NCBI GenBank assembly: GCA_965198005.1
Contig: CBDAOI010000002.1
Location: 96,001 to 160,000, forward strand
From: Spirochaetia bacterium
GTDB taxonomy: Bacteria > Spirochaetota > Spirochaetia > SZUA-6 > Bin103
Direction of reading: 5' to 3'
Length of the DNA stretch: 64,000 bases
The position numbers and the translations under genes are program-made. This document shows positions 10,096 to 29,378 of this stretch, piece by piece; the stretch's first letter is position 1; each line of letters begins with the position of its first letter. The notes under the pieces were generated by a model. That model was not told where the DNA came from. It saw only the letters and a program-made list of their open reading frames with translations, and did no database searches.

Positions 10096-10130
10096 CCTCG
10101 ATTCGCGGTCCGGTGGAACATCCGCTCCTG

Positions 10131-12701
10131 ATGAACGACAGCCGCCCCGACACCGGAACCAATGGCCTGCCGCCACTGACGGGCATTCGCGTCGTCGACT
10201 TCGGCCACTACCTCGCCGGACCGCTTACCGGCATGCTGCTGGCCGATCAGGGCGCCGAGGTGATCAAGATCGACCGTCCCGGCCAGGCCTCGTGCGCCAC
10301 TCCCGCGGGCGCGGTATTCAATCGCGGCAAGCAGCTTCTGGAACTGGACCTGAAGAGCGCCGCCGGCCGCGACGCCGCGCAGCAACTGGTGGCGTCGGCG
10401 GACGTGCTGATCGAGAACTTCCGCCCCGGAGTGATGGAGCGGCTCGGGCTCGGTTCCACCGCCATGGCGACCGCCAACCCGCGTCTGGTGTACCTGTCCC
10501 TGCCGGGCTTCGGCGCCGGCGAGGAACGTGCTTCACTGCGTGCCTTCGAAGGCGTGCTCAGCGCGGCCACCGGGGTGTTCACCGACCTGCATTGGATTCG
10601 CCGCGAGCTGCAGGCGCCGCCGCAGTACACGCCGATCCCGCTGGCCTCGGCCTACGGCGCGGTCCACGGCGCGCTGGCGGTGACCCTGGCGCTCTACGCG
10701 CGTGCGGAGAGCGGGCGCGGCGAGGTGATCGAGGTGCCGCTGGCCGGCGCCGCGCTGTCGGCGATGGGCGCCTTCCTGCTGCGCGTGGCGGATGCGCCGG
10801 CGCGCTACGGCAAACGTCCCAATCCCGCCAACGACGCGCTGCGCGCGCGGATGCGGCAGGCCGACGCGGCCGAGCGGCGCCGGCTGATCGATCAGCTCCG
10901 TCCGTGGCTGCCGCCGATGTTCGACAGTTACCAGGCCGGCGACGGCGGCTGGGTGTTCCTGCTCGCGGGCAACAGCCGCCGCAACTCGACGCAGTTGGTC
11001 AAGGCGCTGGGGATCTACGACGGCTTGATCGCCGACGGCATGGTCGACCTGCCGCCCTACGCCGACCTCACGCGGACCAACAACATCCAGGATGTCGACG
11101 GCCTGTCGCGGGAGTGGAAGAAAACCCTGCGCGACCGGATGGCGGCCGCCTTCCGGCAGAAACCGGCGGACGACTGGACGCCGATCATGCGCCGGTTCGG
11201 GGTGCCGTTCAGCGTCCACCGGACCACGCAGGAGTGGTTGCACGCCCCGGAAACCGATGCCGCGGCGCTCACCGTCGAGGTAGAGGATCCGGTGCACGGA
11301 GCGATCCGCCAGTTCGGCGTGCAAACCTCGCTGGGCCGCACCGCCGAGCGGTGGCACCAGCCGCAGCCGGCCCGACCGGGCGACCTGGGCGCTCTGCTGC
11401 CGGATCGCGCGGCCGCGTTCGCCGCCGACGGCGGCGGCGCCGATGGAACCGATGGAGGCGCGGCGCAGTCGGCCCCGCACCGGACGCAGATCCTCGCCGG
11501 CATCAAGGTGCTCGACCTGTCCACCGTGCTGGCCGGGCCCTGCTGCGCCCGCACGCTGGCGGAGTATGGCGCCGACGTGATCAAGATCGACGCGCCCGAC
11601 CCTTACTTTCTCCCCTCGACCGCGTGCATGCTGCACCTTGAGGTGAGCCAGGGCAAACGCAGCATGATCCTGGACCTCAAGCAGGCGGCGGGCAAGCGCC
11701 TGTTCCAGCAGTTGGCCGGCGATGCCGACGTGATCGTGCACAACTTCCGCCCCGGCGTGGCCGAGCGGCTCGGCATCGACTACGCCAGCGTGGCGCGCAT
11801 CAACCCCGGCATCGTCTATCTCAACCTGACCGCGTTCAATGGGCCGCGGCGCGGGCCGTGGACCGAACTGCCCGGCTTCGACCCGGTGCTGCAGGCGGCC
11901 ACCGGGATCCAGCTCCGCTACGGCGGCCCCGGCGAACCGCCCGAGCTGCACGGCTTCGCCTCCTGCATCGACTACCTGACCGGCTACTCCGGCGCCTTCG
12001 GCATCGCCCTGGCCCTGCTGCGCCGCACACGCGAGGGCGGCGGCGACCTGGTGCTCACCTCTCTGGCGCAGAGCGGGCAACTGGTGCAGGCGCCGTTCGT
12101 GTGGGCCACCGCAGATGCCCGGCCCGACGACCGCCCGCACGGGCAGGAGGCCCTGGGTGCGCACTCCCTGGAGCACCTCTACCGCGCCGCCGACGGCTGG
12201 CTGATGCTGACCGGCCTGCCGGCGGACCTGCCGCGGCTGCGGGATCTTCCCGAGCTGGCGGCGACGCCGGTCGAGGCGTCCGAGGAGGCGGCGCGCATCG
12301 CCGCCATGCAGGCGGCCATCGCACAGCAGCCGCTGGCCCACTGGGAGCAGGCGTTCAACGCCGCCGGCTTCGGCTGCCACCGCGTCGCCTGCATCGAAGA
12401 CCTGCGCCGCGCCGGCCTGCGCGAGCTGACCGACGCCGAGCGCGCGGCATGGCGTGACGGCCCGTCGATCTCGGTCATCCGCCTGCTCGACCACCCGGTC
12501 GGCAGCCCGGTCGACAACCCGGCCCCCACCTACGCCCGCTTCGCCACCACCTCGCTGCGCCTCACCAACCCCATGCCCAAGATCGGCAGCCACACCCGCT
12601 CCATCCTGCGCGAGCTGGGCCACGACGACGCCCGGATCGACCGCTGGATCGCCGCCGGGGTCGCCGCCGAGCAGATCCACGACGCCTACCTCCCCCACTG
12701 A
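10131..12701 (+). CDS. Tandem (two-domain) CaiB/BaiF family III CoA-transferase
   Basis: Two repeats of V(V/L)D(F/L)...AGP...G(A)(E/D)VIKID...NFRPGV.ERLG. Confidence 0.9.
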   Translation: MNDSRPDTGTNGLPPLTGIRVVDFGHYLAGPLTGMLLADQGAEVIKIDRPGQASCATPAGAVFNRGKQLLELDLKSAAGRDAAQQLVASADVLIENFRPGVMERLGLGSTAMATANPRLVYLSLPGFGAGEERASLRAFEGVLSAATGVFTDLHWIRRELQAPPQYTPIPLASAYGAVHGALAVTLALYARAESGRGEVIEVPLAGAALSAMGAFLLRVADAPARYGKRPNPANDALRARMRQADAAERRRLIDQLRPWLPPMFDSYQAGDGGWVFLLAGNSRRNSTQLVKALGIYDGLIADGMVDLPPYADLTRTNNIQDVDGLSREWKKTLRDRMAAAFRQKPADDWTPIMRRFGVPFSVHRTTQEWLHAPETDAAALTVEVEDPVHGAIRQFGVQTSLGRTAERWHQPQPARPGDLGALLPDRAAAFAADGGGADGTDGGAAQSAPHRTQILAGIKVLDLSTVLAGPCCARTLAEYGADVIKIDAPDPYFLPSTACMLHLEVSQGKRSMILDLKQAAGKRLFQQLAGDADVIVHNFRPGVAERLGIDYASVARINPGIVYLNLTAFNGPRRGPWTELPGFDPVLQAATGIQLRYGGPGEPPELHGFASCIDYLTGYSGAFGIALALLRRTREGGGDLVLTSLAQSGQLVQAPFVWATADARPDDRPHGQEALGAHSLEHLYRAADGWLMLTGLPADLPRLRDLPELAATPVEASEEAARIAAMQAAIAQQPLAHWEQAFNAAGFGCHRVACIEDLRRAGLRELTDAERAAWRDGPSISVIRLLDHPVGSPVDNPAPTYARFATTSLRLTNPMPKIGSHTRSILRELGHDDARIDRWIAAGVAAEQIHDAYLPH

Positions 12702-12715
12702 CGGATGTGGCACAA

Positions 12716-13046
12716 TGGCAAAAGGACGGTGAACGCGCGAGCCTGACCGCCCGATGATCGTCAAGGACCTGCTCACCCACACCTCCGGCCTCACCTACGG
12801 CTTCATGCGCAGCCACGCCGTGGACGCGCTGTACCGGGCCCGCATCGGGCTGCCGCCAAAGGAGTCGCTGGAGGCGGTGATCGCCACGCTCGGCGAGCTG
12901 CCGCTGCAGTTCTCGCCGGGCAGGCGCTGGCAGTACGGCATGTCCACATCGCCCAACTCACCAACTCGGACGGCGTCCCCGCCAGCCCACCCCGCGTGCT
13001 CCGCCGCCTCCTCAAACCCCTGATCTACCAGGCCCTGGTCGACTGA
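12716..13046 (+). pseudogene. Fragment of serine hydrolase (beta-lactamase/EstB-like)
   Basis: DLLTHTSGLTYGF, LPLQFSPGRRWQYGMS, then an out-of-frame C-terminus LIYQALVD*; the SxxK N-terminal part is missing. Confidence 0.75.
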
Positions 13047-13089
13047 CCCTCGGCCGCAACGCCGTCGCGGCAGTCACCGCCGCCCTCCG

Positions 13090-14616
13090 TCATTCAAGCG
13101 GAAGCTCTTGCGGCGCGACAACGTAGCGTACCGGGCTCTTCTCCTTCACCAACGTGCGTTCATCAACGAGGCGCTTCAACCATGGGCCCAAAGTCGTCGC
13201 GGATATCTCCAGCTCGTCGGCGATTGTATTGCGGTCTCTTGGTTCCACGCAAATGCTCTGCACGTAAGAACCGACCTCTCGATAGAGAAGTTCGGCGTAG
13301 GAACTACCCCGATATTGAACTGACGGAGCCGACTCCAAAATCACATCCGACTTCGCTTCGTCGTCCTGCGGTGAGATAACGTAGGTCTCTCTACCAAGCT
13401 TCTCCACGGCTCCGCCAGCGGCAAGCCGCTTCAGCCAGGTATTGGCCATGGTCTTGGGGACTCCCAACTCGGCGGCAACATGCTCGGCCTTCTGAGGTTC
13501 GGCACAGATGCGCGTGACGTACGACTCGACGTCTCGAAGGAGAAGTCGCGCGTAGTCCTGCGGCTGGGGCAATGCATCGGCCGGCGCGGAGATGGGTTCC
13601 GGGCTCGTCGCGCCAATCTCCGGTCCCACGGAGCGTTCGACCTCGCCAGTCGCCGGTTCATGCACAGAGACGACGCGACCAAGAATCTCCTCGATCCCAT
13701 CCGCGTCTTTCGGTTCTGGCCACGGGCGTGCGCCACGATCTTGCAGAGCCTCAAGGCCCGCGGAAGGATCGCCGCTCGAACGCACGAAGACGGGCACGGG
13801 GTACTTTTTCAACTGCTCGACGGCCCCGGACCACGTGCCCCCTCGGTTGAAGTCCGCGTTCACCACCAGACCCGCTTCCGCCAGTGCATAGATCACCTTG
13901 TTGCGCTGCATCGCCTGCGCGACCGTGAATCTCAGGCTCGGGTCGAATGGAGAAACCAGTACGAGCCGCTCTTCCAGCATCAGGTTGCGATGCTCGCGGT
14001 TCATGACCGTCCTCTCCAAGTCTCCGGGCAGCACTCCTACGACGCGGCCACCGGCCTCCAAAGCACCGTTCATGGCGGCCCGATCAACGCCTCTGGCACC
14101 ACCCGAGACCACGGTCAACCCGGCGCCGGCGACCAGCGCTGCAGTTTCCCGCGTGTACTCGATGAGTGGATCAGTAACGTCGCGCGATCCGACAATCGCG
14201 AAGCTCCGGGTATGCATGATCTCTTGCAGTCCACACCCGTAAAGCACGCTCGGCGCATCGTTCTTCAAACGCTGCTTGAGCAACGGTGGGTAGGCTGCAT
14301 CGGCGCGGCTCACGACCCAGATCCCTCGCGTCTGCCAACGCTCCACCGCCTGGCTCAGCAGGAATCCTCGGTTCAGCAATGCTCTCAGGCGAGTCTCGTC
14401 GATCACCTCGCCGCATTGCGCGAGGAGCCGATCAGCCCCCGACTCCAGCAGGTTGGCCGGCTCGGACTGGAGCGATGCCAGACAAGGGGCCAGCTTCCGG
14501 TACTCGCCGGCGGTAAGGATTTGCGCTCGTGGCCCGCGGTTGCCGACGACCAGGGGAGCGGTGAGCAGCAGGATCGCCATGGTGTTGGCGGACAGGCCAT
14601 CGGCCCCGTTCATCAT
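13090..14616 (-). CDS. dprA: DprA/Smf-family protein with duplicated C-terminal wHTH
   Basis: YPPLL, AIVGSR, VVSGGARGVDRAA, AMQRNKVIYALA, GGTWSGA. Confidence 0.88.
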   Translation of the reverse strand: MMNGADGLSANTMAILLLTAPLVVGNRGPRAQILTAGEYRKLAPCLASLQSEPANLLESGADRLLAQCGEVIDETRLRALLNRGFLLSQAVERWQTRGIWVVSRADAAYPPLLKQRLKNDAPSVLYGCGLQEIMHTRSFAIVGSRDVTDPLIEYTRETAALVAGAGLTVVSGGARGVDRAAMNGALEAGGRVVGVLPGDLERTVMNREHRNLMLEERLVLVSPFDPSLRFTVAQAMQRNKVIYALAEAGLVVNADFNRGGTWSGAVEQLKKYPVPVFVRSSGDPSAGLEALQDRGARPWPEPKDADGIEEILGRVVSVHEPATGEVERSVGPEIGATSPEPISAPADALPQPQDYARLLLRDVESYVTRICAEPQKAEHVAAELGVPKTMANTWLKRLAAGGAVEKLGRETYVISPQDDEAKSDVILESAPSVQYRGSSYAELLYREVGSYVQSICVEPRDRNTIADELEISATTLGPWLKRLVDERTLVKEKSPVRYVVAPQELPLE

Positions 14617-14683
14617 CTCGTGTCTCGTCCGAAAGTGCCGGCAATCGGCGATGCCTGTATCTCGACTATCATCGTCTTCCGTG

Positions 14684-16759
14684 TCATGAAGTGGCGCTGC
14701 TGCCTCCTGCATCAGCCAGGGCCAGGGGCCACACTTCCCCACTGCCGCGGCGCCGAAGCTCCCAGGCGACCACGGTGAAGGTCCAGCGCGAGTCTACCAT
14801 GTCATCTACCAACAGCACGGGCCCGGGAAGCATCTGACGCCGGTCGACCACCAGCGATCCGATAACATTGCGCGCCTGCTTGTCGCTGTTCTCCATCGTC
14901 TTCTGCTCCGGTCGCTCCTCCTTCCGCTCGAGCACCGCTTGAAACGGAAGTTCAAGCGCATGGGCCAGCCGTCTGGCAAAGTCAGGCACCAGATGCGGAC
15001 GCCGGTGCGAGGGCACGGCGGCAACCCAGGTGGGATACGGGGCAGGCTGCCACTTCCGAACCAGGGCCGCGCAGGCGTCCACGAGCTCCTCGGCGAAATG
15101 ATCGTCTCGGTACTTTCCGTCCGCTACCAGGCGGCCCCAGCCGGCATCTCCCCAGACGCACAATGCCATTCCCGGCTGCGCACGATGTTCACGCTCGATC
15201 CACTTGCCGGTTGGCCATTGCTTGCGCGGAACGATCGGCAGGTTCTCGTTGCGGAGGAAGGTGATGGCGTCCCTGACGCTGGCCGGATGCACGGTTGTCG
15301 GCAGGTGGGGCACCTCGGGCGGTCGAAAATCGCCCGGGTCGCCGTCCAGCGACCGGATGAGAAACTCCATGTGGTCGGAGGAGAGATCCACGTACTGCTG
15401 CATCTGTTGCTGCTCTGCCTGCCTGAGTTCGGTGAGCCGTTCCGTCCGCTGCCAGAACGCCTCGCTCAGTCTGGCCGCCGTGAGCTGCCACTTCGTGCCG
15501 AACGTCGCTATTGGCGCGGGTGACTCGAGCGCGAGGAGCTGGATCGTCTTCCGTATGCGCCCGTAGCCGAGGTTGACTTCGGCTGCGATCTCGCGAATCG
15601 ACAGACCCTCCGGGGCGGCCTCCAACGCGTCGAGGACGGCCGCGACCTGATCGCGATTGGGGAATGCGCTCGCTATGAAGTAGTTCGTGATGTCGGTTTC
15701 TTCGGTACCGCTCAGCAGCACGCCGTAGGCCGCATCGAGCGCGCGACCCGCGCGCCCCACCTGTTGATAGTAGGCCACGACCGAGCCTGGCGTCTGGTAG
15801 TGGATGACGAATGCGAGGTCCGGTTTGTCGAAGCCCATCCCCAATGCCGTCGTCGCGACCAGCGCTTTCACCTTGTTGTCAAGGAGAGCCTGCTCCAGTT
15901 CGGGCCGGCGCTCACCTGACTTGCCGGTGTATGCCTCGGCCTCGATGCCGCGCGTCCTGAGCCATCGGGCCACCTGCTCGGCGTCGCGGATCGTGAGGGT
16001 ATAGACGATTCCGCTTCCCGGCAGGTCCAGCAGCAGGTCGGACAGCCACGCGAGCCTTTCCGCCTGACTGGGCAGGCGCATTGTCTGCAGCGCCAGCGAA
16101 GGACGCGCCAAGTCGCCGCGGGAAACCGTCAAGTTCGGGCCAAGGATCTTCTGCAGGTCCTCCATGACCCGATTGTTGGCGGTTGCGGTGGTAGCCAGCA
16201 GACGAAGATTCGGAGGCAAAACGCGGAGGGTGCGTTCGATCCGTCGGTAGTCAGGACGGAAGTCATGCCCCCAGTCGGAGATGCAGTGCGCTTCGTCGAC
16301 GACGAGGAGCGAGACCCGACTGCCGATTTGAGACAACACCTGGTTATTGAAGCGCTCGTTGGCAAAGCGTTCCGGCGCGATGAGGACGATGTCCACCTCG
16401 CCACGGCGTATCGCCGCCTCCACATCCCGCCAGCGCTCCGCATTGTCGGAATTGATGGTCTCGGCCCGCACGCCCATCCGCTCTGCTGCCGAGATCTGGT
16501 TCCGCATCAGTGCGAGCAGTGGGCTGACGAGCAACGCCGGTCCCATGCCGGCCTCGCGCAACAGCTTGGTCGCGATGAAGTAGACGAAGCTCTTCCCCCA
16601 ACCCGTCTTCTGCACCACCAGAAGCCGCCGGCTGCCCTGGAAGACGTGGCGGATCGCTTCTTCCTGGCCTGCCCGAAACCGCGCTCGCGGATCGCCCACC
16701 CCCGCTCGCAGCAGCGCCAGGGCCCGTGCCGAAGAAAAACTCCCTGGTGTCTGTTTCAT
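14684..16759 (-). CDS. RecQ-family helicase with C-terminal ComF-like phosphoribosyltransferase domain
   Basis: QKTGWGKS, DEAHCISDWGHDFRPDY, ALGMGFDKPD, QQVGRAGR; C-terminal VLLVDDMVDSRWT. Confidence 0.9.
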   Translation of the reverse strand: MKQTPGSFSSARALALLRAGVGDPRARFRAGQEEAIRHVFQGSRRLLVVQKTGWGKSFVYFIATKLLREAGMGPALLVSPLLALMRNQISAAERMGVRAETINSDNAERWRDVEAAIRRGEVDIVLIAPERFANERFNNQVLSQIGSRVSLLVVDEAHCISDWGHDFRPDYRRIERTLRVLPPNLRLLATTATANNRVMEDLQKILGPNLTVSRGDLARPSLALQTMRLPSQAERLAWLSDLLLDLPGSGIVYTLTIRDAEQVARWLRTRGIEAEAYTGKSGERRPELEQALLDNKVKALVATTALGMGFDKPDLAFVIHYQTPGSVVAYYQQVGRAGRALDAAYGVLLSGTEETDITNYFIASAFPNRDQVAAVLDALEAAPEGLSIREIAAEVNLGYGRIRKTIQLLALESPAPIATFGTKWQLTAARLSEAFWQRTERLTELRQAEQQQMQQYVDLSSDHMEFLIRSLDGDPGDFRPPEVPHLPTTVHPASVRDAITFLRNENLPIVPRKQWPTGKWIEREHRAQPGMALCVWGDAGWGRLVADGKYRDDHFAEELVDACAALVRKWQPAPYPTWVAAVPSHRRPHLVPDFARRLAHALELPFQAVLERKEERPEQKTMENSDKQARNVIGSLVVDRRQMLPGPVLLVDDMVDSRWTFTVVAWELRRRGSGEVWPLALADAGGSSATS

Positions 16760-16966
16760 GATCCGCGCGCCACTGTTCGCTCGACGTGTCGAGTGCCCTC
16801 TCCCAAAACAAGGTGTAGATGATGCCCAGACACGGGTCAATCCCGTTGATCGCTCCACGAGCTTGTCTCCAGCGCCATCGTTACGGACTACCTTCGCACT
16901 CGCTCGCAGGGCGCGAGCCGGGAACAACAAGCCGGCACCACGGCCATGAACGAAGTCCCTCCCGGT

Positions 16967-19900
16967 TCACGATGACGCGGAGATGCTCAGTATCTCCAGC
17001 GCCTCCTTGCGGTCCAGGTGCGGGTGGGCGAACTGATTTCGATAGCTGCGCAAGCAGCCGTAGCAACTCGAATCGCATCCGCACGCGCCGCTCACACGGT
17101 CCCGAGCGTGCCGGAGCACCGCCGCGAACACCTCTTCGCGCTCCAGTTGAGCAACCAAGCCAGCGCCACCGGGGACGTTGTCGTAGAGCACTATCGACGC
17201 GGTTGTCGATGCCACCGCCGCGGTCGCGTCGACGCCTGCGATCGTGACATTCAGGTCGGTGTCCGGCACCCCCAACCGTTCGGCTGCTCCCAACAGGAGT
17301 GCGTAACCCACGGAATAGGCCATCCACTCGCCGTTCAGGTGGGGCACCTGCAGCCGCACCACGTCCGTAACCAGCTCGTGCCCAAGCGAGAAGTGCCGCA
17401 GCGTACCGGAGCACGGGGTATCCCACGGAGTTCGGTGTTCATGCTCCTGTTCGGTGAGGTGGCTCCCGCACGTGAGACAGATATAGAATCCCTGCCGGTT
17501 ATGCCCCTCGCAGAGAACGACGAGCGTACCGGGCAGCGCCTTCGTCACCTCGATGCCGAACAGTTTCCTCGTCTCCAGACGGACGTCACCGCCGAATCCC
17601 TTGAAGAACGGGCGAGTCGTATACAGCCGGCGCACCCGGCCGCGCGGCTCTTTCGGCTGCTGAAACAGCGCCGTAACGAACCCGAACTGCGGGATGAGAT
17701 ATTGCCTCATCCCCGGTGGCCGCGGTCCGCTGTCCTCGATCTGGGTGAAGTTCCGCGCCTCATTGTAATCGTAGTATGGCGTCTGTAGCGCCTTGCCGGG
17801 TACGATCTTGACTCCGACCGATTCCCACTCCCGCTTGTCCGCTATCACCTTGCCGCCGGGCGCGTACTCGGCGATCGCCTGTGACAGATCCCTCTGCAAC
17901 GCCACTCCGGTGGACTCCCGCGATTGGCCGCTCCGGGTGTCGAGCTCCACCACGTCTACCGGAAATCCATACTTCGGGATGGCCGCCTTGCGCGACAGGA
18001 AGCTCAGGGTCTGCTCTTCCGCAATGGTCCTCATACGACGCTCGATGTGGCCGACTTTAGTCGTCCAGCCTTTCGGCTGCTCCCGTATCAGGACCTCCTT
18101 CGCCTCCTGCATGGCACGATAGTCCGCGCACACCTCCAGTTCGACTTCGGCAAGGCGACTTTCCGGTCCCGCGACGTGATCGACCCACCCGCCGCTGGTC
18201 AATCCGGTGGCTGGGTGCATCGGCTCAGGCACAATGCGCTTCAATGCCGACTGCAGCGCGGCGTTGCCATGGCAGAAACGCTTCAGTTCGGAGACCGCAT
18301 CCGGGGCCTGCCAGTCGCCGACGAACTGCTGTACGTTGATGAAGCGGCCGCCCTTCCCCAGGTCCCTGAAAAACGCCGACAAAGCGGTGGCCGCCATGTG
18401 CCGTACGACGATTTTCGTATTCGTCACCTGCAGACGCGGCGGCTGCAATGGACTGTTGATTATGCGTTCGCACGGTTTCTCGTAGTGATAGAGATCGTGT
18501 GGATTGCGGCGGCAGTAAGTAACGGCGAAGCCTGGAGTCTCGCTGCGACCAGCGCGTCCAACGCGCTGCGTGTAGTTGAATGGCTCCGGCGGTACGTTGC
18601 GCACGAACACCGCCTCCAGATCGCCGATATCGACTCCCACCTCGAACGTAGTTGACGAACTGAGCAGGTGGATGTCTCCGTTTTTGAACCGCTCCTGACG
18701 CTGCCGCGCTTCATCGCTTGCGATCTGCGCCGTGTGTTCTTCGGCATGCAGCGTCGGGGGCAACGACGCGCTCTCGTAGAGGATGCGGTAGTGGTTGTTG
18801 CTTAGCCGCCGTTGGTCGGCTACACGCAACCTGCCGGGACAACGGTTTCTCGGACAAACGGCGCGAATACTGTGCAGGCTGATGCTTGCGCACGTGTCGC
18901 ACTCCCAAATCTCGTCGGATCGAGTAAGTGCGATGCGCAGCCAGCGCGAGTTGAGACGAAACGTGCCATTGGCGCTTCCCCGGGACAAGAGCTGGTCGGC
19001 GGGGCGCGAGTTGCCGTCGCGTGTTCGTAAGACGCTCCACGCCTGCCTCATGAGCCGGATGGACACCGACCGCTTGTCTTCATCGGACAACCCGCTGTCA
19101 GACAGAAGCCGATGCAGGAAATGCGCTACGACAGCCGACGCCGCGGAGCCCCACTGCCTCACGTTGCGACGTCTCCCCGGTGCCCCGATACCGTACGACG
19201 CCTGCGGCCAGGGCGAGACGTCGTTCCAGGCCGGCGCGCCGGCCTCTGCAGGCAGCGCCAACGCGCCGCGCAGACGAAGCTCGTCGAGGAGATATGCAAG
19301 AAGTCCGCGAGTGTCTTGCTCGGACAGACTCCAGGGCGGCATTCGTGCTACCTCCGGCAGCGCTACGTCATCGGGAATCTCGACGCTCCACTTGAGCAGT
19401 CCGACCCCGCTCAACGACAGCCGGCGCTCGTCGGTCAACGCTTCGCTGAGAATCGACTCCAACACCCTTCGCCGTCTACCTTCGGCGGTATCAGAAGCGC
19501 TGAACAGCCCCGCATGATCCCATTGGCTGAGCAATCGGGATCTGAGGTCGTCGATGGACAGCCCCTCGGGAGCGATCGCGCCTTGTTGCAGAGCGCGCAG
19601 CATGAGATTGCGATCGCGCAGCTTGCCGTAGGAGTCCTCGGCGTACCAGGCGAAGAATGCCGCTTCCTGACGGCTGTCCGCAAACGCCAACAGCTTGCGC
19701 CCAGTTTCCGGCAGCAACTCGTGCAGAGCGGTGGCGATGACCGCGTTCGGGCCGTCCGAGCCGTGCACGATCTCCTGCACCGGATCTCCCACGCCGCCAC
19801 GCCGATAGCCACAGGTCGCGCACTCCTTCAATTGATCGGGTTGCTCCTTGTGGGACGCACACTTCGCAACGTGGAGCGCAGCCGGAGCGCCGCAGGTACA

Positions 19901-21253
19901 CCCCGGCGTGGCACTCGCGGCGGCGGACAGGCGGCCGCAACGGCGACACAGTACGTGCGATGCACCAGCACTCGACTCCAACGGCCGATAGTACTCGACT
20001 CCGAAGCCCGGCTGGCTCGGGTCCCGCACCGCCTCCTCCAGCCTGCCGTGACGCTCACGGCCGACGTAATAGTGCTGACCGCATTCGCGACACAGCGCGA
20101 TCTCCAGCGGCACGGATCCGGTCCCGTTGGCCAACTCCCCCTTGCGGTTGAGAACCACTGCGTCCCGGCCCTCGCGGTGAACGAGGAACGCACCTTCCAA
20201 CGCGCGCAGGAACGTATGATACCGCCGCGGCGACCGCTGATCGCCCGGCCGCGACGAGCCGAAGATGACGCCGGACGGCGAAAACGATTCTCCGAACAGC
20301 TCCGCAGCGAATTTCGCCACGGCGGTCTTGTCGTCTTCTCCCTCGCCGGAGGACAGCGTTGCGCTGGTGGCGATGCACCGGAATGGCTCGCTACGCCCGC
20401 CGGTGGTCAGGCGCTGCTTCAGGCGCCGAATCAATATGCCCATCTCCATGCCCTTGGCGCCCCGGTACTGATGCGCCTCGTCCAAGACGATGAACTGCCA
20501 GCGCGTGCCGCGCCCGCCATCGAACAGCGGGCTGTCGTCGGGCCGAATCAGCAGGTACTCGAGCATCGAGTAGTTGGTCAGCAGGATATGCGGCGGCGTG
20601 ATCCGCATCTCTTCCCGGAAGATCAACTCCCCGGTGAGTCGTTCTTGCTCTCGATCCGCCGCGTTGCGCCACGTGTCGCTTCTGCTCTTGGGTGTCTGGC
20701 CGGTGTATTGTCCAAAGGTCGGACGAAAATCCGACCCGGCGATGCTCAGCGATTTCGCTATCTCACCGAGGCGTTCCCGTTGATCGTTGGCGAGCGCATT
20801 CATCGGATAGAGAATCATCGCACGCACGCCCGGTTGACCCAGCTCGCCCGCGAGATGCTGTCGGTACAGCTCGAACAGAATCGGGTAGAGAAAGCTCTCC
20901 GTCTTGCCGCTTGCGGTACCGGTCGCGACCACGACGTTCCGCCGCTCGCCGTAAGCAGCCCGAACCGCGCGCTCCTGGTGTACGTACAGCGGCCCGTGCC
21001 TCAGTCCCGGAAGCAGCCGGTCCGCCATGCCTGGAAAACACTGTCGCGCCAACTCGTGTGCCTCCGCACCGTGCTCGAATCCGCGATCGGGTTCGGGATA
21101 CGGCCCCTTCAGCAGACTCCCCTCCTTCCCAAGAGCGGACTCGAAGGAATCCCGCAGCGCGCGATCTTTGAAGAAGAATGATGTCTTCAGGTAATTCTCG
21201 TAGCGACTTCGAATGGTGTCAGTCCACCGTTCGACGTGTTCTGCTTTGGGCAC
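16967..21253 (-). CDS. SF2 DEAH-box helicase with C-terminal DUF1998/MZB domain (DruE/DrmB/DpdJ-like)
   Basis: TGTASGKTE, YPMNALANDQ, DEAH, SATL, FEVGVDIG, QRVGRAGR, LYDNVPGGAG, CGCDSSCYGCL; GTG start with AAGGGGG RBS. Confidence 0.92.
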   Translation of the reverse strand: MPKAEHVERWTDTIRSRYENYLKTSFFFKDRALRDSFESALGKEGSLLKGPYPEPDRGFEHGAEAHELARQCFPGMADRLLPGLRHGPLYVHQERAVRAAYGERRNVVVATGTASGKTESFLYPILFELYRQHLAGELGQPGVRAMILYPMNALANDQRERLGEIAKSLSIAGSDFRPTFGQYTGQTPKSRSDTWRNAADREQERLTGELIFREEMRITPPHILLTNYSMLEYLLIRPDDSPLFDGGRGTRWQFIVLDEAHQYRGAKGMEMGILIRRLKQRLTTGGRSEPFRCIATSATLSSGEGEDDKTAVAKFAAELFGESFSPSGVIFGSSRPGDQRSPRRYHTFLRALEGAFLVHREGRDAVVLNRKGELANGTGSVPLEIALCRECGQHYYVGRERHGRLEEAVRDPSQPGFGVEYYRPLESSAGASHVLCRRCGRLSAAASATPGCTCGAPAALHVAKCASHKEQPDQLKECATCGYRRGGVGDPVQEIVHGSDGPNAVIATALHELLPETGRKLLAFADSRQEAAFFAWYAEDSYGKLRDRNLMLRALQQGAIAPEGLSIDDLRSRLLSQWDHAGLFSASDTAEGRRRRVLESILSEALTDERRLSLSGVGLLKWSVEIPDDVALPEVARMPPWSLSEQDTRGLLAYLLDELRLRGALALPAEAGAPAWNDVSPWPQASYGIGAPGRRRNVRQWGSAASAVVAHFLHRLLSDSGLSDEDKRSVSIRLMRQAWSVLRTRDGNSRPADQLLSRGSANGTFRLNSRWLRIALTRSDEIWECDTCASISLHSIRAVCPRNRCPGRLRVADQRRLSNNHYRILYESASLPPTLHAEEHTAQIASDEARQRQERFKNGDIHLLSSSTTFEVGVDIGDLEAVFVRNVPPEPFNYTQRVGRAGRSETPGFAVTYCRRNPHDLYHYEKPCERIINSPLQPPRLQVTNTKIVVRHMAATALSAFFRDLGKGGRFINVQQFVGDWQAPDAVSELKRFCHGNAALQSALKRIVPEPMHPATGLTSGGWVDHVAGPESRLAEVELEVCADYRAMQEAKEVLIREQPKGWTTKVGHIERRMRTIAEEQTLSFLSRKAAIPKYGFPVDVVELDTRSGQSRESTGVALQRDLSQAIAEYAPGGKVIADKREWESVGVKIVPGKALQTPYYDYNEARNFTQIEDSGPRPPGMRQYLIPQFGFVTALFQQPKEPRGRVRRLYTTRPFFKGFGGDVRLETRKLFGIEVTKALPGTLVVLCEGHNRQGFYICLTCGSHLTEQEHEHRTPWDTPCSGTLRHFSLGHELVTDVVRLQVPHLNGEWMAYSVGYALLLGAAERLGVPDTDLNVTIAGVDATAAVASTTASIVLYDNVPGGAGLVAQLEREEVFAAVLRHARDRVSGACGCDSSCYGCLRSYRNQFAHPHLDRKEALEILSISASS

Positions 21254-23441
21254 GTCGTTGTATCCCCCTTAGTGCATCGATATTGAAACCGTACGCGGTA
21301 TGGCGCCGCCAGTCGATAGGAATATCCACCTGCTTCGCAGCGGCAGCCGTCAGCCCTGCGGCGTGGATCTCGCGCAAACTGAATCCCCTTCCGGGCCGCC
21401 TGCCGCGCCCATGCGTGTGCGTGACGTAGGCACGCAATCGACCGATCTTCAGCGGAGAAAACACGGTTACTTCTGCGTGTTGTGTCACCTTCTCGCCAGT
21501 CATCACCACATCCGGATGCGCATGGAACGAGACAATCTCTGGAACAGCATCAGCGATGACACGGACCAGTGGCACAATGGATGAGCCGCATCGAGCATGC
21601 AATAGAGCATCCTCGTGCAACCAGCTATCGATCTGCGAATCGTCCGCGAAGTCGATGAGAGGAAGCTGTACCGTGCGAATCAAGTCCTCTGTCTGTATTG
21701 AGCGATAGCTTCTGGTCAAGTCATGATCGAATCCCACGTCTACGGCATTGATCTCCCGTGGTAGACGGATCCGAACCACAGAGTCGGAGTTGGCGTGGTC
21801 ACGAAACTCACTGCGCGTCATCGCCAGCCGTGTCGCGCACCAGGGTGCTGATTCCTCTCCTTCGTGCCCAAGACACCACCAAATCCTCGGTAACCTGATC
21901 ACCACCTCGACACTGCCCGATGGAGTCTCTAGCGAGCAGGCAACCTCGTCGGCAGCCGGATACGGAGCCACCATCACGGCCGCTTCCTCTTCCACCCATC
22001 GTTGGTGGGAACCTGGTCTCAACGAGGGCCGAATGGCTGCGCCCTTCACCCCCACGAACTGCACCTTGGTCGGAGTATGGCCTTCTATCGCTGGCGCCAG
22101 CAGCGTTTCCCCGGTGTAGGGTCTACCATTTACGAGGATCTCGCGGAGGCCCTCGACGTAGCGGAATTCGCCATTGTCGCACAGCTTCGTATCGCTGTCG
22201 TACACGCGCACAAAAAAGCGTCCCTGACGTTGATCCAGCACGTCCGCCAACGGGCGTTCCGCGGGCAGGAAGCTTTCCCCGCGCCAGCCGCCATCCTTCT
22301 CTTCGCCGACGCGCGCCCAAGTGACTCCGCGCCCCGGTCTCAGTTCCGGAGGCCTGCCAATGAACAGTCCGCCTTCGGTCGAGTCGTCGTAGAGTCGCTC
22401 GCCGATCAGCGAGAAGCCCGCGCGGGTCAGCTCCAAGTCGCACTCCTCGAAGCCAACGCCGTCCGCTGACGGGTCGCCGTTGCGAAAGAAGTAGTGCGCC
22501 TGGAACGCAGGATCGGCGCTCGCCTCCGGTGCGACCGGCGCGCGCCCCCTGCGGTTCCATCCTGTCGGTGCTATCACGATGAAGTGACCGCGACTGACGG
22601 CGTCGATTCTCCGACCGACACCGCTCCACCTGTCGGCCAACTTGAAGATCATCGGCGCTCGCGCGGTGCATAACGGAAGCTCGGTTGCACTGCCGTCCGC
22701 ATGATCGACGGAGAGAACCCCCGCAAAGGATGAAAGGCGGTACTCGGCCCGTTCCGCGCGTAGGCGGGTGTCGTCGAGCCGAACGCCGGTTACATTGCAT
22801 TCGTCGGGCGCCGACAAGACTACCCCCCATTGCCATGACCCGGGCGCCTTTCGGCATATCAACTCCGGTAGGGCAGGAGGCGGGGCTGGGCGGTTCGCTG
22901 CCCTCGGGACGGCGACCGCAGCGCGCACGCCCCGCCGTGCGCCGTGCCTGCGCGGTGGCCGACGCGGTGTTGTCGCACTACCGCGAGAAGGTTCCGGACC
23001 GTGCTCCGCAGGCTGTTGGGCGATGCGTTGGCCAATTTCTAGCTTGCGGAAGTCCGGCCCGACCAATCGCCTGTCGAGAGTGAAAACGGTCGTCACACCG
23101 AGCTGAGACATCAGCGCGCGGCTGGTTCGGGGGATCAGAGCACCCAGATCGCGCTTGCCCCGGGTAAGGGCTCGGGCATGAAGCCCGGAATCGACCGTCA
23201 GAACCGTCACGCGCGGTTTCAGCTCGGCGAGGAACGCCCGCGCTTTGTCGAATCCGAGCCGTGCCTGCACGAGCGCCAGCAACTCCGCGCACACGTAGCT
23301 GGAAGTGATCAGCGGAGCCCCGGAGCGCAACAATTCGTCCCAGGCCGAACCAACCTGAGCATGCGCCTCATGGGTCGGGTCAAGCAGCGCGTAAAACGCT
23401 GTCGTGTCGATGAATATGGCGTTTCCGTCGGAGCGCTCCAT
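21219..23441 (-). CDS. Fusion protein: N-terminal PIN (VapC-like), uncharacterised middle, C-terminal ribosomal protein L13e-like domain
   Basis: N-terminus IFIDTTAFYALL...TSSYVCAEL...VFTLDR; C-terminus RPGRGFSLREIHAAGL...IPIDWRRHTAYGFNIDAL; stop overlaps the helicase start. Confidence 0.75.
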   Translation of the reverse strand: MERSDGNAIFIDTTAFYALLDPTHEAHAQVGSAWDELLRSGAPLITSSYVCAELLALVQARLGFDKARAFLAELKPRVTVLTVDSGLHARALTRGKRDLGALIPRTSRALMSQLGVTTVFTLDRRLVGPDFRKLEIGQRIAQQPAEHGPEPSRGSATTPRRPPRRHGARRGVRAAVAVPRAANRPAPPPALPELICRKAPGSWQWGVVLSAPDECNVTGVRLDDTRLRAERAEYRLSSFAGVLSVDHADGSATELPLCTARAPMIFKLADRWSGVGRRIDAVSRGHFIVIAPTGWNRRGRAPVAPEASADPAFQAHYFFRNGDPSADGVGFEECDLELTRAGFSLIGERLYDDSTEGGLFIGRPPELRPGRGVTWARVGEEKDGGWRGESFLPAERPLADVLDQRQGRFFVRVYDSDTKLCDNGEFRYVEGLREILVNGRPYTGETLLAPAIEGHTPTKVQFVGVKGAAIRPSLRPGSHQRWVEEEAAVMVAPYPAADEVACSLETPSGSVEVVIRLPRIWWCLGHEGEESAPWCATRLAMTRSEFRDHANSDSVVRIRLPREINAVDVGFDHDLTRSYRSIQTEDLIRTVQLPLIDFADDSQIDSWLHEDALLHARCGSSIVPLVRVIADAVPEIVSFHAHPDVVMTGEKVTQHAEVTVFSPLKIGRLRAYVTHTHGRGRRPGRGFSLREIHAAGLTAAAAKQVDIPIDWRRHTAYGFNIDALRGIQRRAQSRTRRTVD

Positions 23442-23612
23442 AGGAATCCGAAACTGCCGTGATAATACACGACTGGGCACACGTCTTACCATAAGCGGTG
23501 TGCCGGTTGCGGCTCGCATCCAGCGCGGTACTCGGGGCTGCGCGGCCCCGAAGGCCGGTATCTGCGCCCAGCCGGTGGCGGGCACGCAGCAGACGTTCAG
23601 AAACGGCCGGCT

Positions 23613-25697
23613 TCACCGCTGAGGCAGGCTAGGTCGCACCGCGTCCAGAACCACTTCAAGACACTGGTCCAGGTCGCGTGATAGTTCGCGGACGCTGAAG
23701 CGCGTCACCTGCCACCCCTCGGCCTCGATGGCTCGGTCCCGGTTGGAACTCGCTCCCGGTTTCCGAGGAAAGGCAGCCCCATCGCACTCGACGTCCAGTC
23801 GAACCTCCCCGTCTTCGACAGCGACGTCGAGTCGGTGCCCCGCCACCACTGCGCCCGTTCTGGCGGGAACGCCACGGCGCAGAAGCGCCTCGAACAATTC
23901 CATCGCGACCGGACTGTCGAAACCGCTCGCTTCGATCCTGGTCACGTAGCCCGCCAAGCGCCTCAGTACGGTCTCATGTGCGATCCACGCTTCGATGTCT
24001 CCAATGATGACCAGGCGACGGCGCGCACGCGTCAGAGCGACGTTGATCAGATTCCGGTCGGACACTTGCCGGACCACAGCCTCGGCCTCGGCGCGATTGA
24101 TCCGGCTCCGCCCGCGCGGACCGCGGGCGGCCTGTCCCGCAACTCGTACCCACTCGATGGCACGCAAGCCGGCGGGTGGCTTCCGGTCGCTGCACAGCTC
24201 CATGTTCCCGTCGTAGAACTCGGTATTGGCGAAGCCGATGATGGCCGGATGCGACCGGAAGTGCAGGTCGAGGAACAGGGGCGGCGCCACGATCCGCGCC
24301 ACCGCCAAGTCGAAACAGCTATGGTAGCGGTAGCTGAACGCTTCGGCGCGCTCCTCCGCCAAGCCCCATCTCCGCGCAATGAGCCGCTCACGCGCGTGGC
24401 TGAGCGTAGTGACGTGAATCAGTTGTCGCTGATCGCCAATGATCAGCGCACGCTCCGCACGCACGAGCAACGGTAGCGCGGACGCCACGTCGCACTGTGA
24501 CGCCTCGTCTATCACCACCAGATCGAACAGCCCGGGTTGCAGCGGCAGATTGGTGCGAGCGGAAAGATTCGTCACCTGCGACCTCCTCCCTGAGAGCGGC
24601 GCCCCCGGCTCGCACGACGATCCCGTGCGGGGAGGTCTCGCGCAGCCGATCGACCACGACATCCACCGCCTTGTTGTTCTTCGACGCCAGCAGCACGGTC
24701 TCGCCGCGGCATACGGCGGCGGCTACGACATTCACCAGCACCTGCGACTTTCCGGTCCCGGGCGGGCCGGTTACCACCGTGAACTGGTTCGTCATCGCAG
24801 CGTGCACCGCGTGATCCTGCGCCAGGGAGGAGGGTACGAGCGTCGGATGCGCCTCCGGGAGCGGCGGTTCCGCAACCGAACCGGTACCCAACAACACGGC
24901 GGCCGGGCCACGCCGCAGCAGCTCCGGCCGATTCGCCAGTTCGTGCAGGTCGACGACAAGGTTCCGCACGAATGGCAGGCGGCCTGACGTTGCCATCAAA
25001 CCTCCGGGCTCTCATCCACCGCTTTCACGAATGCCTCACGCTCATCCCGAGCGAAACCGAGAAGATCAAGCGCGAAGGGATTGAGCTCCACGAACTCACC
25101 GGGGCGTTGGCAACGCCATGTTCCGTGTTGGAACTGTAGTCGCACCTCGGTGAGCAGCAACGGGGATGCGGCGATGTCACCCGGTCCCGAGGACGTGCAC
25201 CCCACGATGAGCGGCCAGCCGGCTATCTGCGTCTCGCCCACAGCCCGTGCGCGCCGCTCGCACCAGTCGCGGCTGTCCGGATCATCGGATACCGAGATCG
25301 AGGCATGGAACGGGCTCTTGCGGCCGGCGAGCTCGATATGATCGCGACTGCCGGGAACCAAGCGCAGCGAGCCGGCGGCTTCCGCTTCTACGCAATCGCG
25401 AAAGAATCCGACCAGGGCGACCAACTCGTCCTCAGGTGGTTTGTTCCGGTCGACCATCGTCTGCCGCGCGTGGATTTCAGGGGCGCCGTTGAACATGCGC
25501 ACCTTGCCCTGGACGCGAACCTGATCGCCGGATTGCGGAGCCAGGCCGGCCTCCCACCACACGACCGTCAGCTCATCGTCGCCTTGCGCGCGTAGCGTCG
25601 CCTTCACCGCCGGGCCGTTCCCGGTCGCGAAAGTCCGTCGCCTGCCTACCTTGCCCACCACGTCGACCGATTGTCCCTCTGTCAGGGGGTGCTGCAT
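23613..25697 (-). pseudogene. Deleted copy of the OB-fold/SF1 helicase/DUF559-like gene
   Basis: Matches 35444..38686 but lacks three internal segments (about 231, 782 and 145 bp by manual alignment); split over three ORFs. Confidence 0.9.
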
Positions 25698-25896
25698 CAC
25701 TTCGTCTCCACGTCGGGTGGCCGGGGCCACACCATGCCACGCTACCGCGGACGTGATCGCGCGAACCGATCGGCGTGATAGTATAGAATACTTGGCATAA
25801 TGGCCCTCCCGGCGGCCGATCGCCCTGCCGTCTGCCGGGCCCGACGCAGGAGCCCGCCCGATAACTGATCTCCCGCGCGGCAAGGAGCAGGTTGAA

Positions 25897-26106
25897 ATGG
25901 AGTACACGGCTATCGTCAAACGTAGCGGAGAGTGGTGGATCGGCTGGATCGAGGAAGTGCCCGGCGTCAACTGCCAGGAACGCACTCACGAGGAGCTCCG
26001 CAAGAGCCTCGCCGAAGCCCTCTCCGAAGCCCTGGAATTCAATCGTCGCGAGGCTCGCGCCGCTGCAGGTGACAACTACCGCGAGGAAAAAGTCGCCGTG
26101 GCATGA
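25897..26106 (+). CDS. hicB: HicB-family antitoxin
   Basis: MEYTAIVKRSGEWWIGWIEEVPGVNCQERTHEEL. Confidence 0.88.
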   Translation: MEYTAIVKRSGEWWIGWIEEVPGVNCQERTHEELRKSLAEALSEALEFNRREARAAAGDNYREEKVAVA

Positions 26107-26291
26107 AGCGGATCCAATTGCTGAAGCATCTTCGGCAGAGTGGGTGCAAATTGATTCGGGAAGGAAGAAGACATTCGTGGTGGTGCAACAACCGTGGGGA
26201 CCGACGCTCCGCGATCCCCAGGCATAGAGAGATCGATGACACGCTGGCTCGGAAGATCTGCAGGGATCTCGGCGTAGAACCGGTCAAGTAG
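26103..26291 (+). CDS. hicA: HicA-family toxin
   Basis: LLKHLRQSGCKLIREGRRHS...IPRHREI...ARKICRDLG; ATGA overlap with hicB. Confidence 0.9.
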   Translation: MKRIQLLKHLRQSGCKLIREGRRHSWWCNNRGDRRSAIPRHREIDDTLARKICRDLGVEPVK

Positions 26292-26360
26292 GAGATCAAC
26301 CCCAACCGCTCGGCCTCCGGAACATCAACACCGGCACAGCGAATGAGGTAGTATGCCCGC

Positions 26361-29300: not shown

Positions 29301-29378
29301 CGCTGGGCCTTCGCCGAGTTCACCGACGTGTATACGATCCAGGAAGATTTCCTGCGTGCGGTCGGGAAGAGCCAGTGA
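26361..29378 (+). CDS. res: Type III restriction endonuclease Res subunit (BPTD_3080-like)
   Basis: PILNSPY, KLATGAGKT, NDEAHHCY, LSATP, MLTEGWD, QVVGRALRR, YLPDF...VEIKG. Confidence 0.92.
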   Translation: MEQRFFEQPILNSPYEYPARHWELDANRQPTNRIVERRRTVSFITPIPAARKRRAKQQEMVFDQAARALATDGQQYDLTAIIESVRHSVGEWRRLPRAQWRVTPETARLLEHWRHHQFSDIRPFFCQVEAVETVIWLTEVAPGPGREGRQFVQRLEAANEEANPGLARLALKLATGAGKTTVMAMLIAWQTINAVRHPGSRRFTRGFLVVTPGLTIRDRLRVLQPNDPDSYYQSRELVPRDLLGDLNRAKIVITNYHAFMPRETQEISRGGRALLQGRGPELRTLESEGQMLQRVMPGLMGMKQIMAFNDEAHHCYREQPDKESDEAKLTGDDREEAKKNSEAARVWISGLEVVQRKLGLSRAIDLSATPFFLRGSGYAEGTLFPWTMSDFSLMDAIECGIVKLPRVPVADNIPGADMPKFRNLWEHIGKRMPRKGRAKSVALDPLSIPVELQTALEALYGHYVKIFDQWREAGIEVPPCFIVVCNNTSTSKLVYDYISGFQRQHEDGSSSLENGRLELFRNFDDYGNPLARPHTLLIDSEQLDSGEALGRDFRVAATDEIERFRREIIERTGDRRQAESLSDHDLLREVMNTVGVAGRLGGATRCVVSVSMLTEGWDARTVTHILGVRAFGTQLLCEQVVGRALRRQSYDLNEEDLFDVEYADVLGIPFDFTAEPVVAKQPKPRETVPVRAITPDRDACEIRFPRVQGYRVELPEEHVDATFDDDSTLVLTPEIVGPSITHNAGIIGQGVDLNLIHRRDLRLSTLVYHLTKTLLEKHWRDPEQNPKLHLFGQLKRVTRRWLDDHLVCKGGTYPAQLMYQELADQACTRITRAIVARHLGDRAVTAVLDPYNPTGSTIHVNFTTSKRTRWQTDARRCHVNWVVCDSDWEAEFCRFVESQPSVRAYVKNHGLGLEVPYRYGSEARTYLPDFIVLVDDGHDDDDLLHLVVEIKGYRREDAKEKKATMETYWVPGVNRSGAYGRWAFAEFTDVYTIQEDFLRAVGKSQ

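Follow-up and report, generated by a model that had tools for sequence, protein, structure and literature searches.

Two probable defence systems and a dead gene in a Spirochaetia five-gene block: PsyrTA and a two-gene Druantia relative with a partner protein of an undescribed family

The subject of this report is a block of five genes at 13.1-26.0 kb of a 64,000-nucleotide stretch of DNA from a Spirochaetia bacterium (assembly GCA_965198005.1, contig CBDAOI010000002.1, positions 96,001 to 160,000), referred to throughout as the window. An earlier note, made from the sequence alone, had proposed that these genes form a single undescribed anti-phage system with three helicases. We find instead that the block very probably consists of two independent defence systems and one dead gene, all within a rearranged and partly decayed defence island. 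One of the systems is PsyrTA, which already has a name. The other is a two-gene relative of Druantia, in which a helicase from a clade that is already catalogued is accompanied by a helper protein of an undescribed family. This helper, the PIN protein encoded at 21219-23441, is called X here. The division is built on family assignments, gene linkage, domain folds and the conservation of active-site residues. Numbered in the direction of transcription, the five genes are as follows.

Gene 1, 23613-25985, minus strand: pseudogene for an OB-SF1 helicase-DUF559/MTES_1575 protein, in three open reading frame (ORF) fragments with three gaps relative to its paralogue
Gene 2, 21219-23441, minus strand: partner protein X, with a PIN domain, a disordered linker, an immunoglobulin (Ig)/Fn3-like β-sandwich array and an eL13-like C-terminal domain
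Gene 3, 16967-21253, minus strand: compact DruE-like helicase (YprA family, DUF1998/MZB) without a C-terminal nuclease, 1428 amino acids; Pfam DEAD, Helicase_C and MZB
Gene 4, 14684-16930, minus strand: psyrT, for a RecQ-like helicase with a C-terminal effector region, 748 amino acids; PADLOC PsyrT 884.6 bits
Gene 5, 13090-14742, minus strand: psyrA, for a DprA-like antitoxin, 550 amino acids; PADLOC PsyrA 422.8 bits, Pfam DNA_processg_A 126 bits

Much of the earlier description is sound. All five genes were found as minus-strand ORFs at the places given for them, the domains that had been named (DprA, RecQ-like, DUF1998 helicase, PIN, L13e and OB/SF1/DUF559) were all confirmed by Pfam, and the locus does contain defence-type genes. 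The reported 35-nucleotide overlap between genes 2 and 3 (21219-21253) holds for the longest ORFs, and the database call for the helicase is also 1428 amino acids. What did not survive is the unity of the set.

The evidence on this point comes from the neighbourhoods of X in other genomes. A scan of one genome per species yielded 27 loci with an X homologue, all in metagenome-assembled genomes. Their hosts belong to the Acidobacteriota, Latescibacterota, Binatia, Dehalococcoidia, Gemmatimonadota, Rhodothermales, Verrucomicrobiota, Thermodesulfobacteriota, Alphaproteobacteria and Gammaproteobacteria. Directly downstream of X, 24 of the 27 carry a helicase that is 57-70% identical to that of the window; close relatives with a helicase 81-88% identical fall outside this comparison, which bears on the split into two systems. 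The 24 include one helicase split into two ORFs (L009), one cut by a contig end (L016) and one that is shortened (L020). As for the remaining three, there is only a helicase remnant in L029, a GmrSD gene instead in L012, and a contig that ends too early to judge in L018. The coupling is often exact, with the X stop and the helicase start overlapping by precisely 8 nucleotides in 10 loci. Within 10 kb of X, on the other hand, PsyrT, PsyrA, the SF1 helicase, and two further products of the window, a BPTD_3080-family restriction enzyme and a STAND-like protein, gave no match of at least 60 bits in any of the 27 loci. Nor was a third conserved gene found when the 1690 ORFs of at least 90 amino acids from these loci were clustered. 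The other recurrent clusters, judged by example members of each, lie inside X or the helicase in another frame or on the other strand. In other words, the neighbourhood check that had been proposed for the five genes shows that they are not a recurrent set elsewhere. Genes 2 and 3 are best read as a pair with coupled translation, of a kind resembling Druantia III-B.

Locus L012 is a case of its own. There (9545-15269) the X homologue keeps the same 8-nucleotide overlap and is followed by a GmrSD_N (DUF262) protein and an AAA_15/DUF3696 ATPase, without a helicase. X may have an alternative partner at this locus.

Genes 4 and 5 can be dealt with more briefly. The PsyrTA system, also known as RqlHI, is reported in Sberro 2013, Russell and Mulvey 2015 and Millman 2022. 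Both proteins of the window match its models over nearly their whole length. The psyrT product aligns through residues 67-742 with positions 5-685 of the 689 in the PADLOC profile PDLC03928 (884.6 bits), and also matches Pfam DEAD and Helicase_C and the NCBIfam recQ_fam model (233 bits). The psyrA product covers positions 1-395 of the 398 in PDLC03927 (422.8 bits), and its 126-bit match to DNA_processg_A is accompanied by a TrmB-type winged helix-turn-helix. As in the known system, the toxin gene comes first and is followed at once by the antitoxin gene on the same strand. The accessible part of the published description presents PsyrTA/RqlHI as a two-gene phage-resistance system composed of a DprA-like antitoxin and a phosphoribosyltransferase (PRTase) toxin (Millman et al. 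2022, bioRxiv 10.1101/2022.05.11.491447). The near full-length matches to both models, taken with this description, are the reason for assigning genes 4 and 5 to a system that is already known. The differences are nothing notable: the host here is a high-GC environmental bacterium and not a proteobacterium, and PsyrA has extra C-terminal matches of the winged helix-turn-helix kind. The PRTase and DprA-like pair had previously been likened to ShosTA. This comparison has to be given up, with ShosA scoring 85 bits against 423 bits for PsyrA. ShosT is absent from the 25 best of the 39 PADLOC families matched by the RecQ-like protein, where PsyrT leads with 885 bits. PsyrTA would work separately from its neighbours, as a toxin-antitoxin-type defence in which the PsyrT toxin is kept in check by PsyrA, a DprA-like protein that binds single-stranded DNA (ssDNA).

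The other system is less familiar. Homologues of X number 73 in a collection of 5.8 billion proteins, and nearly all of them are metagenomic. A profile search against representatives at 50% identity returned 1443 proteins at E<=1e-30, although this count may include matches through the Ig-like or PIN parts alone. At least 150 are full-length representatives of their clusters, the best 150 of the 1443 all scoring above 620 bits. The family is also patchy. Among 401 genomes sampled from the window's phylum, a full-length X occurs in one, which is the window's own genome. The two partners have not diverged at the same pace, X being 34-47% identical across loci and the helicase 57-70%. Restriction-modification, DruA, PglZ, SIR2, GmrSD, integrase or transposase genes flank the pair in 8 of the 16 loci scanned for such context. 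A promoter and terminator scan of 12800-26400 gave counts at or below the shuffled expectation, and says nothing on operon breaks.

Gene 3 encodes a compact YprA/DruE-like 3'-5' helicase that has no nuclease domain of its own. Pfam places DEAD at residues 92-301, Helicase_C at 835-904 and MZB at 1316-1401, with a large insert between the first two. Motif I (GTASGKT), the DEAH box at residue 258 and the MZB cysteines are intact. No phospholipase D (PLD) or Vsr domain was found in the protein, because it ends just 27 residues past the MZB domain; it therefore lacks the C-terminal PLD of type III-A. In PADLOC it matches DruE3 (511 bits) and DruE1 (505 bits) in several stretches. For comparison, the DruE models give 2180 bits for E. 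coli DruE, 2017 for the type I DruE of the same genome and about 290 for ARMADA-like helicases. The three Pfam domains and the PADLOC matches together identify a DruE-type protein, at scores about a quarter of those of a bona fide DruE. Identity to E. coli DruE is 28-35% and confined to partial stretches. The best sequence match in the PDB is 9tu7, a 2108-amino-acid helicase (275 bits), from an entry series (9tu7-9tuc) that adjoins 9tud, which is named DruH. YprA itself (6znp, 751 amino acids) is matched at 73 bits.

The earlier suggestion that this DUF1998 helicase is related to Druantia is supported by these PADLOC matches, and the more precise label is III-B-like. One clue is that MCY4421422.1, the helicase of locus L021 and 65% identical to that of the window, is labelled "Druantia Type III-B-like" in Table S1, the part of the source used here (Bell et al. 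2025); the label reaches the window helicase by proxy, since the latter is not itself in the table. A second clue is a quick tree of 13 rows, with long branches and no canonical III-B sequence among them, in which the X-linked helicases, including MCY4421422.1 and that of the window, form one tight clade (SH-aLRT 100). This clade lies on the Druantia side of the tree, apart from the ARMADA-like helicases. The helicase appears, then, to fall in a clade that has already been catalogued as III-B-like. It is also a well-populated one, with more than 120 related helicase clusters listed at 64% identity or above.

The earlier note had named a match to a defined Druantia or Dpd subtype as something that would undo its proposal. 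For Druantia such a match exists at the level of the helicase clade; for Dpd it does not. Only helicase cross-matches were seen for Dpd, with DpdF scoring 297 bits on PsyrT (885 bits with the PsyrT model) and DpdJ 70 bits on the DruE-like helicase, and no other component of the Dpd set, which comprises DpdA-C and 7-deazaguanine genes along with the DpdE/F/J helicases, was found among the 18 window ORFs scanned. Druantia types I, II and IV, the last as defined in the available part of PMC8565338, were rejected as well, there being no PADLOC match to DruA-D, DruM/F/G or DruF/DruL in X or in the other ORFs of the region. A search of plasmids for a canonical III-B locus yielded no compact DruE linked to DruH; a Streptomyces match that had been considered as one proved to be ARMADA-like, with a helicase and a DpdE/BrxHII-like helicase. 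One of the X loci does have a Druantia gene of another kind nearby. In L019, at 4165-5331 on the minus strand, there is a DruA homologue (Pfam DruA, 258 bits), some 4 kb upstream of the X-helicase pair and next to DUF4143 ATPase, Fic and type I HsdR genes. Its presence could be fortuitous clustering of island genes or a hint that Druantia types undergo exchange.

What kind of protein is X? Its ORF is open from 21219 to 23585 (788 amino acids). The start is most likely M49 (nucleotide 23441), which gives 740 amino acids, because the database call and 21 close homologues begin there. Residue numbers here follow the 788-residue ORF. Pfam detects a PIN domain at 24.6 bits (cut-off 23.6) and Ribosomal_L13e at 30 bits (cut-off 24.9). 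An AlphaFold2 model of the whole protein, made with 73 sequences, has a mean pLDDT of 82; for the core alone (residues 229-712, 136 sequences) the pLDDT is 93.6 and the pTM 0.87. Residues 56-184 are a VapC-like PIN domain, with the PIN fold and four conserved acidic residues. D60, E101 and D171 are present in all 21 PIN-bearing homologues and D132 in 19 of them. Residues 186-228 are predicted to be disordered, and the core is predicted to be an Ig/Fn3-like β-sandwich array. The chain closes with an eL13-like domain (residues 713-788), which the family profile matches to eL13 chains by sequence (E 7e-7).

The core is conserved in the family, and the eL13-like domain is present in 30 of the 41 members scanned. 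In at least two cases, L022 (9143-12115) and P0035, a ribosomal S17-like OB domain (Pfam 95 bits) stands in its place, and both C-terminal variants (eL13 and S17) match ribosomal-protein families. The PIN domain also invites comparison with toxins of the VapC type, such as VapC20 of M. tuberculosis. However, in X it is fused to a 600-residue non-toxin body, there is no adjacent VapB antitoxin gene, and the gene is coupled to that of the helicase. Two other leads came to nothing. The best match to the X core in the ESM Atlas scored 0.76 and belongs to an unnamed cluster, and an apparent sigma-70 fusion in the X proteins of L032 and L033 is more likely a longest-ORF call that runs into the upstream gene.

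The closest known counterpart of the pair is Druantia III-B, which the accessible parts of two reports describe as a compact DruE without PLDs together with DruH (Bell et al. 2025; Himpich et al. 2026, the latter for the composition). There are several likenesses. Both are two-gene operons with the partner upstream and overlapping the helicase; both helicases have DEAD, Helicase_C and MZB domains, a large insert and no C-terminal nuclease; and X, predicted to have multiple Ig domains as described for DruH, diverges faster than its helicase, as DruH does. The layout predicted for X, with an N-terminal nuclease, an Ig-like domain array and a small helical C-terminal domain, also resembles that of DruH, as far as DruH is described in the portion of Loeff et al. 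at hand. DruH is stated to diverge faster than DruE in the portion of the work by Wu et al. (2026) consulted, and the asymmetry between X and its helicase parallels this. The differences are equally plain. X has 740-790 amino acids and DruH about 1100; X has no detectable sequence similarity to DruH/YjiT, the III-B partner being known here by description; X carries a PIN and an eL13-like domain, neither of which is mentioned in the accessible parts of the DruH descriptions; and the helicase scores 511 bits on DruE models as against the 2180 and 2017 of the two reference proteins. A second comparison is with type III-A, represented by the DruH-DruE pairs of E. coli and P. aeruginosa. Its DruE runs to about 2100 amino acids and includes two PLD domains. 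The helicase here stops at MZB and resembles E. coli DruE only in part, and the partner families are unrelated by sequence. X does not belong to the YjiT/STY4851 family found upstream of DruE in Druantia type III. Judged on its sequence X is not DruH, and the pair is a two-gene relative of Druantia.

How might such a pair work? We infer that it acts in anti-phage defence, and X and the helicase may bind each other. By analogy with Druantia III, the target would be phage DNA that is replicating or recombining: the helicase would load there on ssDNA, 3' tails or forks and unwind in the 3'-5' direction. X might use its Ig-like array and its eL13-like domain to recognise infection or a DNA structure. 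In the PIN-bearing clade it might also supply the nuclease that is missing from the compact helicase, and cut single strands or flaps as they become exposed. The PIN domain may act on DNA flaps, ssDNA or RNA. The idea in the earlier note that ssDNA or forks are sensed is plausible for this pair, by analogy with Druantia III. Even there the role of the partner is contested, as four 2026 studies, in the parts available, disagree on whether it is an ssDNA binder, an exonuclease, a sensor or a scaffold.

Several observations do not fit easily with a Druantia-like defence module. Some concern the tie to DruH. None of 41 X members matches a DruH model (PADLOC, E<=1), while E. coli DruH matches ten DruH3 models. 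PF27205 or PF27201 is found in none of the 73 X homologues by precomputed annotation, whereas at least one of the two is found in 30 of 31 DruH homologues. In hhalign, X reaches a probability of 0.16% against E. coli DruH and of 3.5% against an alignment of 20 DruH sequences. Both of these weak alignments fall in the same Ig-like stretch. The DruH chain 9tud is not among the fold matches of the X model or its core, in a structure library that ends on 2026-04-08 and may predate it. Others concern X itself. The PIN domain is not family-wide, being found in 11 of 41 scanned members or 21 of 73 by alignment, and most N-terminal regions in the family match no Pfam model. The window's X lacks about 51 residues of its last Ig-like domain through an in-frame deletion. 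The context is not uniform either, the other 8 of the 16 scanned loci sitting among metabolic or housekeeping genes. The mean column identity of the helicase is 73% across phyla, which is unusual for a defence gene and would fit a role in repair too. Finally, a literature search, with the supplements of 2026 bioRxiv preprints outside its scope, found no paper on the X-helicase clade, the X family or a PIN-DUF1998 pair. Two further nulls belong with the tests of DruH: the 41 X members match no DruA-D, F, G, L or M model either, and the DruH model PDLC00039 matched nothing in the 401 phylum genomes nor in 14 control genomes and is hence uninformative.

The deletion in X raises the question, separate from that of what the family does, of whether the module has become a non-functional relic in this genome. 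Among the 67 homologues that span the deletion site, 61 are longer there than the window's X by 40 residues or more. Since this is a loss from an Ig-like domain, this copy of X may be impaired. The surroundings point the same way, with an island full of deletions and truncated duplicates and a transposase in it. Nevertheless, neither reading frame is interrupted anywhere along its length, the deletion preserves the frame, and all helicase motifs and the acidic residues of the PIN domain are intact. The helicase is also 88% identical to its nearest relative, with no truncation. We regard a relic as unlikely on balance, but as an option to be taken seriously.

A different view of what X does can be set beside this. 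X may be a modular adaptor, with a phage-sensing Ig-like array, a swappable C-terminal domain of ribosomal type (mostly eL13-like, S17-like in a few) and a swappable N-terminal effector. As such it could be a second, unrecognised family of Druantia partners, in which sensing of phage DNA by the helicase is answered by cleavage of rRNA or tRNA, as an abortive response, and not by degradation of phage DNA. The RNA part of the idea arises because, in the PIN-bearing clade to which the window belongs, the effector most resembles the rRNA-cleaving toxin VapC20 and is in one chain with an rRNA-binding fold. It is a speculative proposal and in its full form an improbable one.

Could the pair instead be a module for DNA repair like MrfA/MrfB (YprA/YprB), working at host forks that are damaged or have stalled? 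MrfAB also pairs a helicase with a nuclease partner, which counts in favour of the idea. So does the membership of the helicase in the YprA/MrfA family, with its MZB domain and the match to 6znp. The high conservation of the helicase across phyla and the housekeeping neighbours in half of the scanned loci add to this. However, the helicase is twice the size of MrfA, and X, although it bears a nuclease domain, is not an exonuclease of the MrfB type. The distribution of the pair is patchy, down to the single genome in the phylum sample, and its hosts are scattered over many phyla with a near-identical architecture. The pair is set in a defence island or a mobile context both in the window and in 8 of the 16 loci, and X changes far more quickly than the helicase, a pattern also reported for the sensor DruH. 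The helicase is, moreover, placed in the defence branch as III-B-like in the part of the survey that covers it (Bell et al. 2025). A role in repair has little probability on this evidence, and a Druantia-like defence pair is the reading retained here.

Gene 1 remains. It had been described as one gene, and the reading frame is in fact broken into fragments at 24996-25985, 24388-24999 and 23613-24662. The region encodes OB, AAA_11/AAA_12 and MTES_1575/DUF559 domains (Pfam). Two other features of the window are related to it.

35444-38974, minus strand: intact SF1 helicase-nuclease paralogue, 1176 amino acids; Pfam AAA_11, AAA_12, MTES_1575 and DUF559
35179-35443, minus strand: dead remnant from the 5' end of another X gene copy, lying downstream of the intact SF1 paralogue, with a match to 23195-23297

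Against the intact paralogue, gene 1 has gaps of about 228, 781 and 145 bp. It is a pseudogene copy of a separate single-gene helicase-nuclease and lies outside the conserved module. The duplicate near 35 kb that had been reported is real, as 23195-28661 and 35179-39905 align in seven blocks at 91-98% identity and the repeat includes the 5' part of the PIN gene. At its end, 35179-35281 matches 23195-23297 (92%) and 35281-35892 matches 23453-24061 (91.5%), so that 155 bp with the X start codon are missing from the second copy. Past 35179 the sequence changes to a methylase fragment (34869-35174, matching 46048-46354).

The repeat of the SF1-to-PIN linkage had been offered as a sign that it predates the duplication. 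The linkage is indeed present twice, but only inside this genome. It is absent from the closest outside relative examined (L038/L039), in which X is 62% identical and the BPTD_3080-family restriction gene 88% identical to those of the window. In that relative the restriction gene is divergent and about 145 bp upstream of X, without an SF1 gene in the interval. Beyond the restriction gene, and contiguous with it, are a methylase and an AAA ATPase. In the window the two are separated by 2.9 kb that contains the SF1 pseudogene. The junction seen twice is one event copied by internal duplication.

What if SF1 had nevertheless joined X and the helicase as a third member in this lineage, and had recently been inactivated in one copy? 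In its favour, SF1 is directly upstream of X in both copies and the duplicated block carries their junction. Against it, X stands directly next to the restriction gene in L038/L039, SF1 is found in 0 of the 27 loci, and no intact trio of SF1, X and helicase exists in the window, where the intact SF1 adjoins a dead X fragment and the intact X adjoins a dead SF1. A three-gene system is very improbable. The idea that all five proteins act together in one integrated system deserves hardly any credence: the five genes are co-directional, tightly packed and all of defence type, and the SF1-X junction occurs twice, but the related loci lack PsyrT, PsyrA, SF1 and any other constant third gene, L038/L039 have no SF1 at the junction, PsyrTA corresponds to a pair validated in its own right, the SF1 gene beside X is dead, and the repeated junction, because it is a duplication within the genome, is not independent evidence.

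The intact SF1 paralogue may itself be an unclassified single-gene helicase-nuclease defence. With Hhe, MkoA and MkoC of Mokosh, PDC-S37 and ProA it shares an Upf1-like SF1 core (AAA_11/AAA_12) followed by a C-terminal DUF559/MTES_1575 endonuclease-like domain. It differs in that the helicase core alone matches and in that its N-terminus is an OB fold and not DUF4011. The PADLOC matches are partial (MkoC 190, MkoA 174, PDC-S37 157 and Hhe 70 bits), and an identity with Hhe or ProA was rejected, since Hhe_antiphage scored 96 bits against a cut-off of 2000 and NCBIfam ProA 175 against 1500.

The block belongs to a defence island that is set between housekeeping genes, with recN, NAD kinase, PCMT, tRNA-Ile and AdoHcy hydrolase below 8.1 kb and serine hydroxymethyltransferase (SHMT) at 55.8 kb. 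Besides PsyrTA and the X-helicase pair, the island holds an ATPase of the HEC-01A type, the BPTD_3080 restriction enzyme with a type III-like methylase, and an HTH-NTPase, together with many truncated duplicates, a transposase and a group II intron reverse transcriptase. It is heavily rearranged. In L038 the restriction enzyme of the BPTD_3080 family (NCBIfam 1334 bits), the type III-like methylase (PADLOC MTase_III 1401 bits) and the AAA ATPase of the HEC-01A type are side by side. In the window genes of these types are scattered, duplicated and partly deleted (26361-29378, 44543-47479 and 8902-10095, all on the plus strand), with fragments at 34268-34861, at 39147-39995 and at about 42.0-43.5 kb. 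At about 2 kb from the island's left edge, a tRNA-Ile gene (GAT; 6149-6222, minus strand) could mark an integration site. On the minus strand at 30093-33677 is an ORF of 1194 amino acids with an N-terminal HTH_3 domain, weak matches to P-loop NTPases (AAA_16/AAA_22) and no match to a PADLOC system; a defence gene of the STAND type is one possibility. Towards its right end the island contains a UvrD-like fragment (50548-51933), a 0.87-kb repeat that is 93% identical and lies on either side of the SHMT gene (51722-52588 and 57892-58758), a Transposase_29 gene (53402-54715) and the group II intron reverse transcriptase with its maturase domain (60920-62227).

Elsewhere in the same genome, contig C3 carries two further systems of the YprA family, L042 (about 37-48 kb) and L043 (about 577-585 kb). 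They are a canonical Druantia type I (DruA 651, DruD 434 and DruE1 2017 bits) and an ARMADA-like pair of a 1783-amino-acid helicase and a DpdE/BrxHII-like helicase (573 bits).

There is a lesson for annotation here. Neighbourhood data divided the five-gene block cleanly, and tight co-directional packing of defence genes within an island is not evidence of one system. For Druantia, the compact III-B-like helicase clade is large, and part of it is paired with the X family and not, by sequence, with DruH. The X family is unrecognised by the defence catalogues that were queried, so rules of the PADLOC type would miss X loci as Druantia. If it is true that X is an analogue of DruH with exchangeable nuclease heads, these loci would offer a natural experiment on what the partner contributes.

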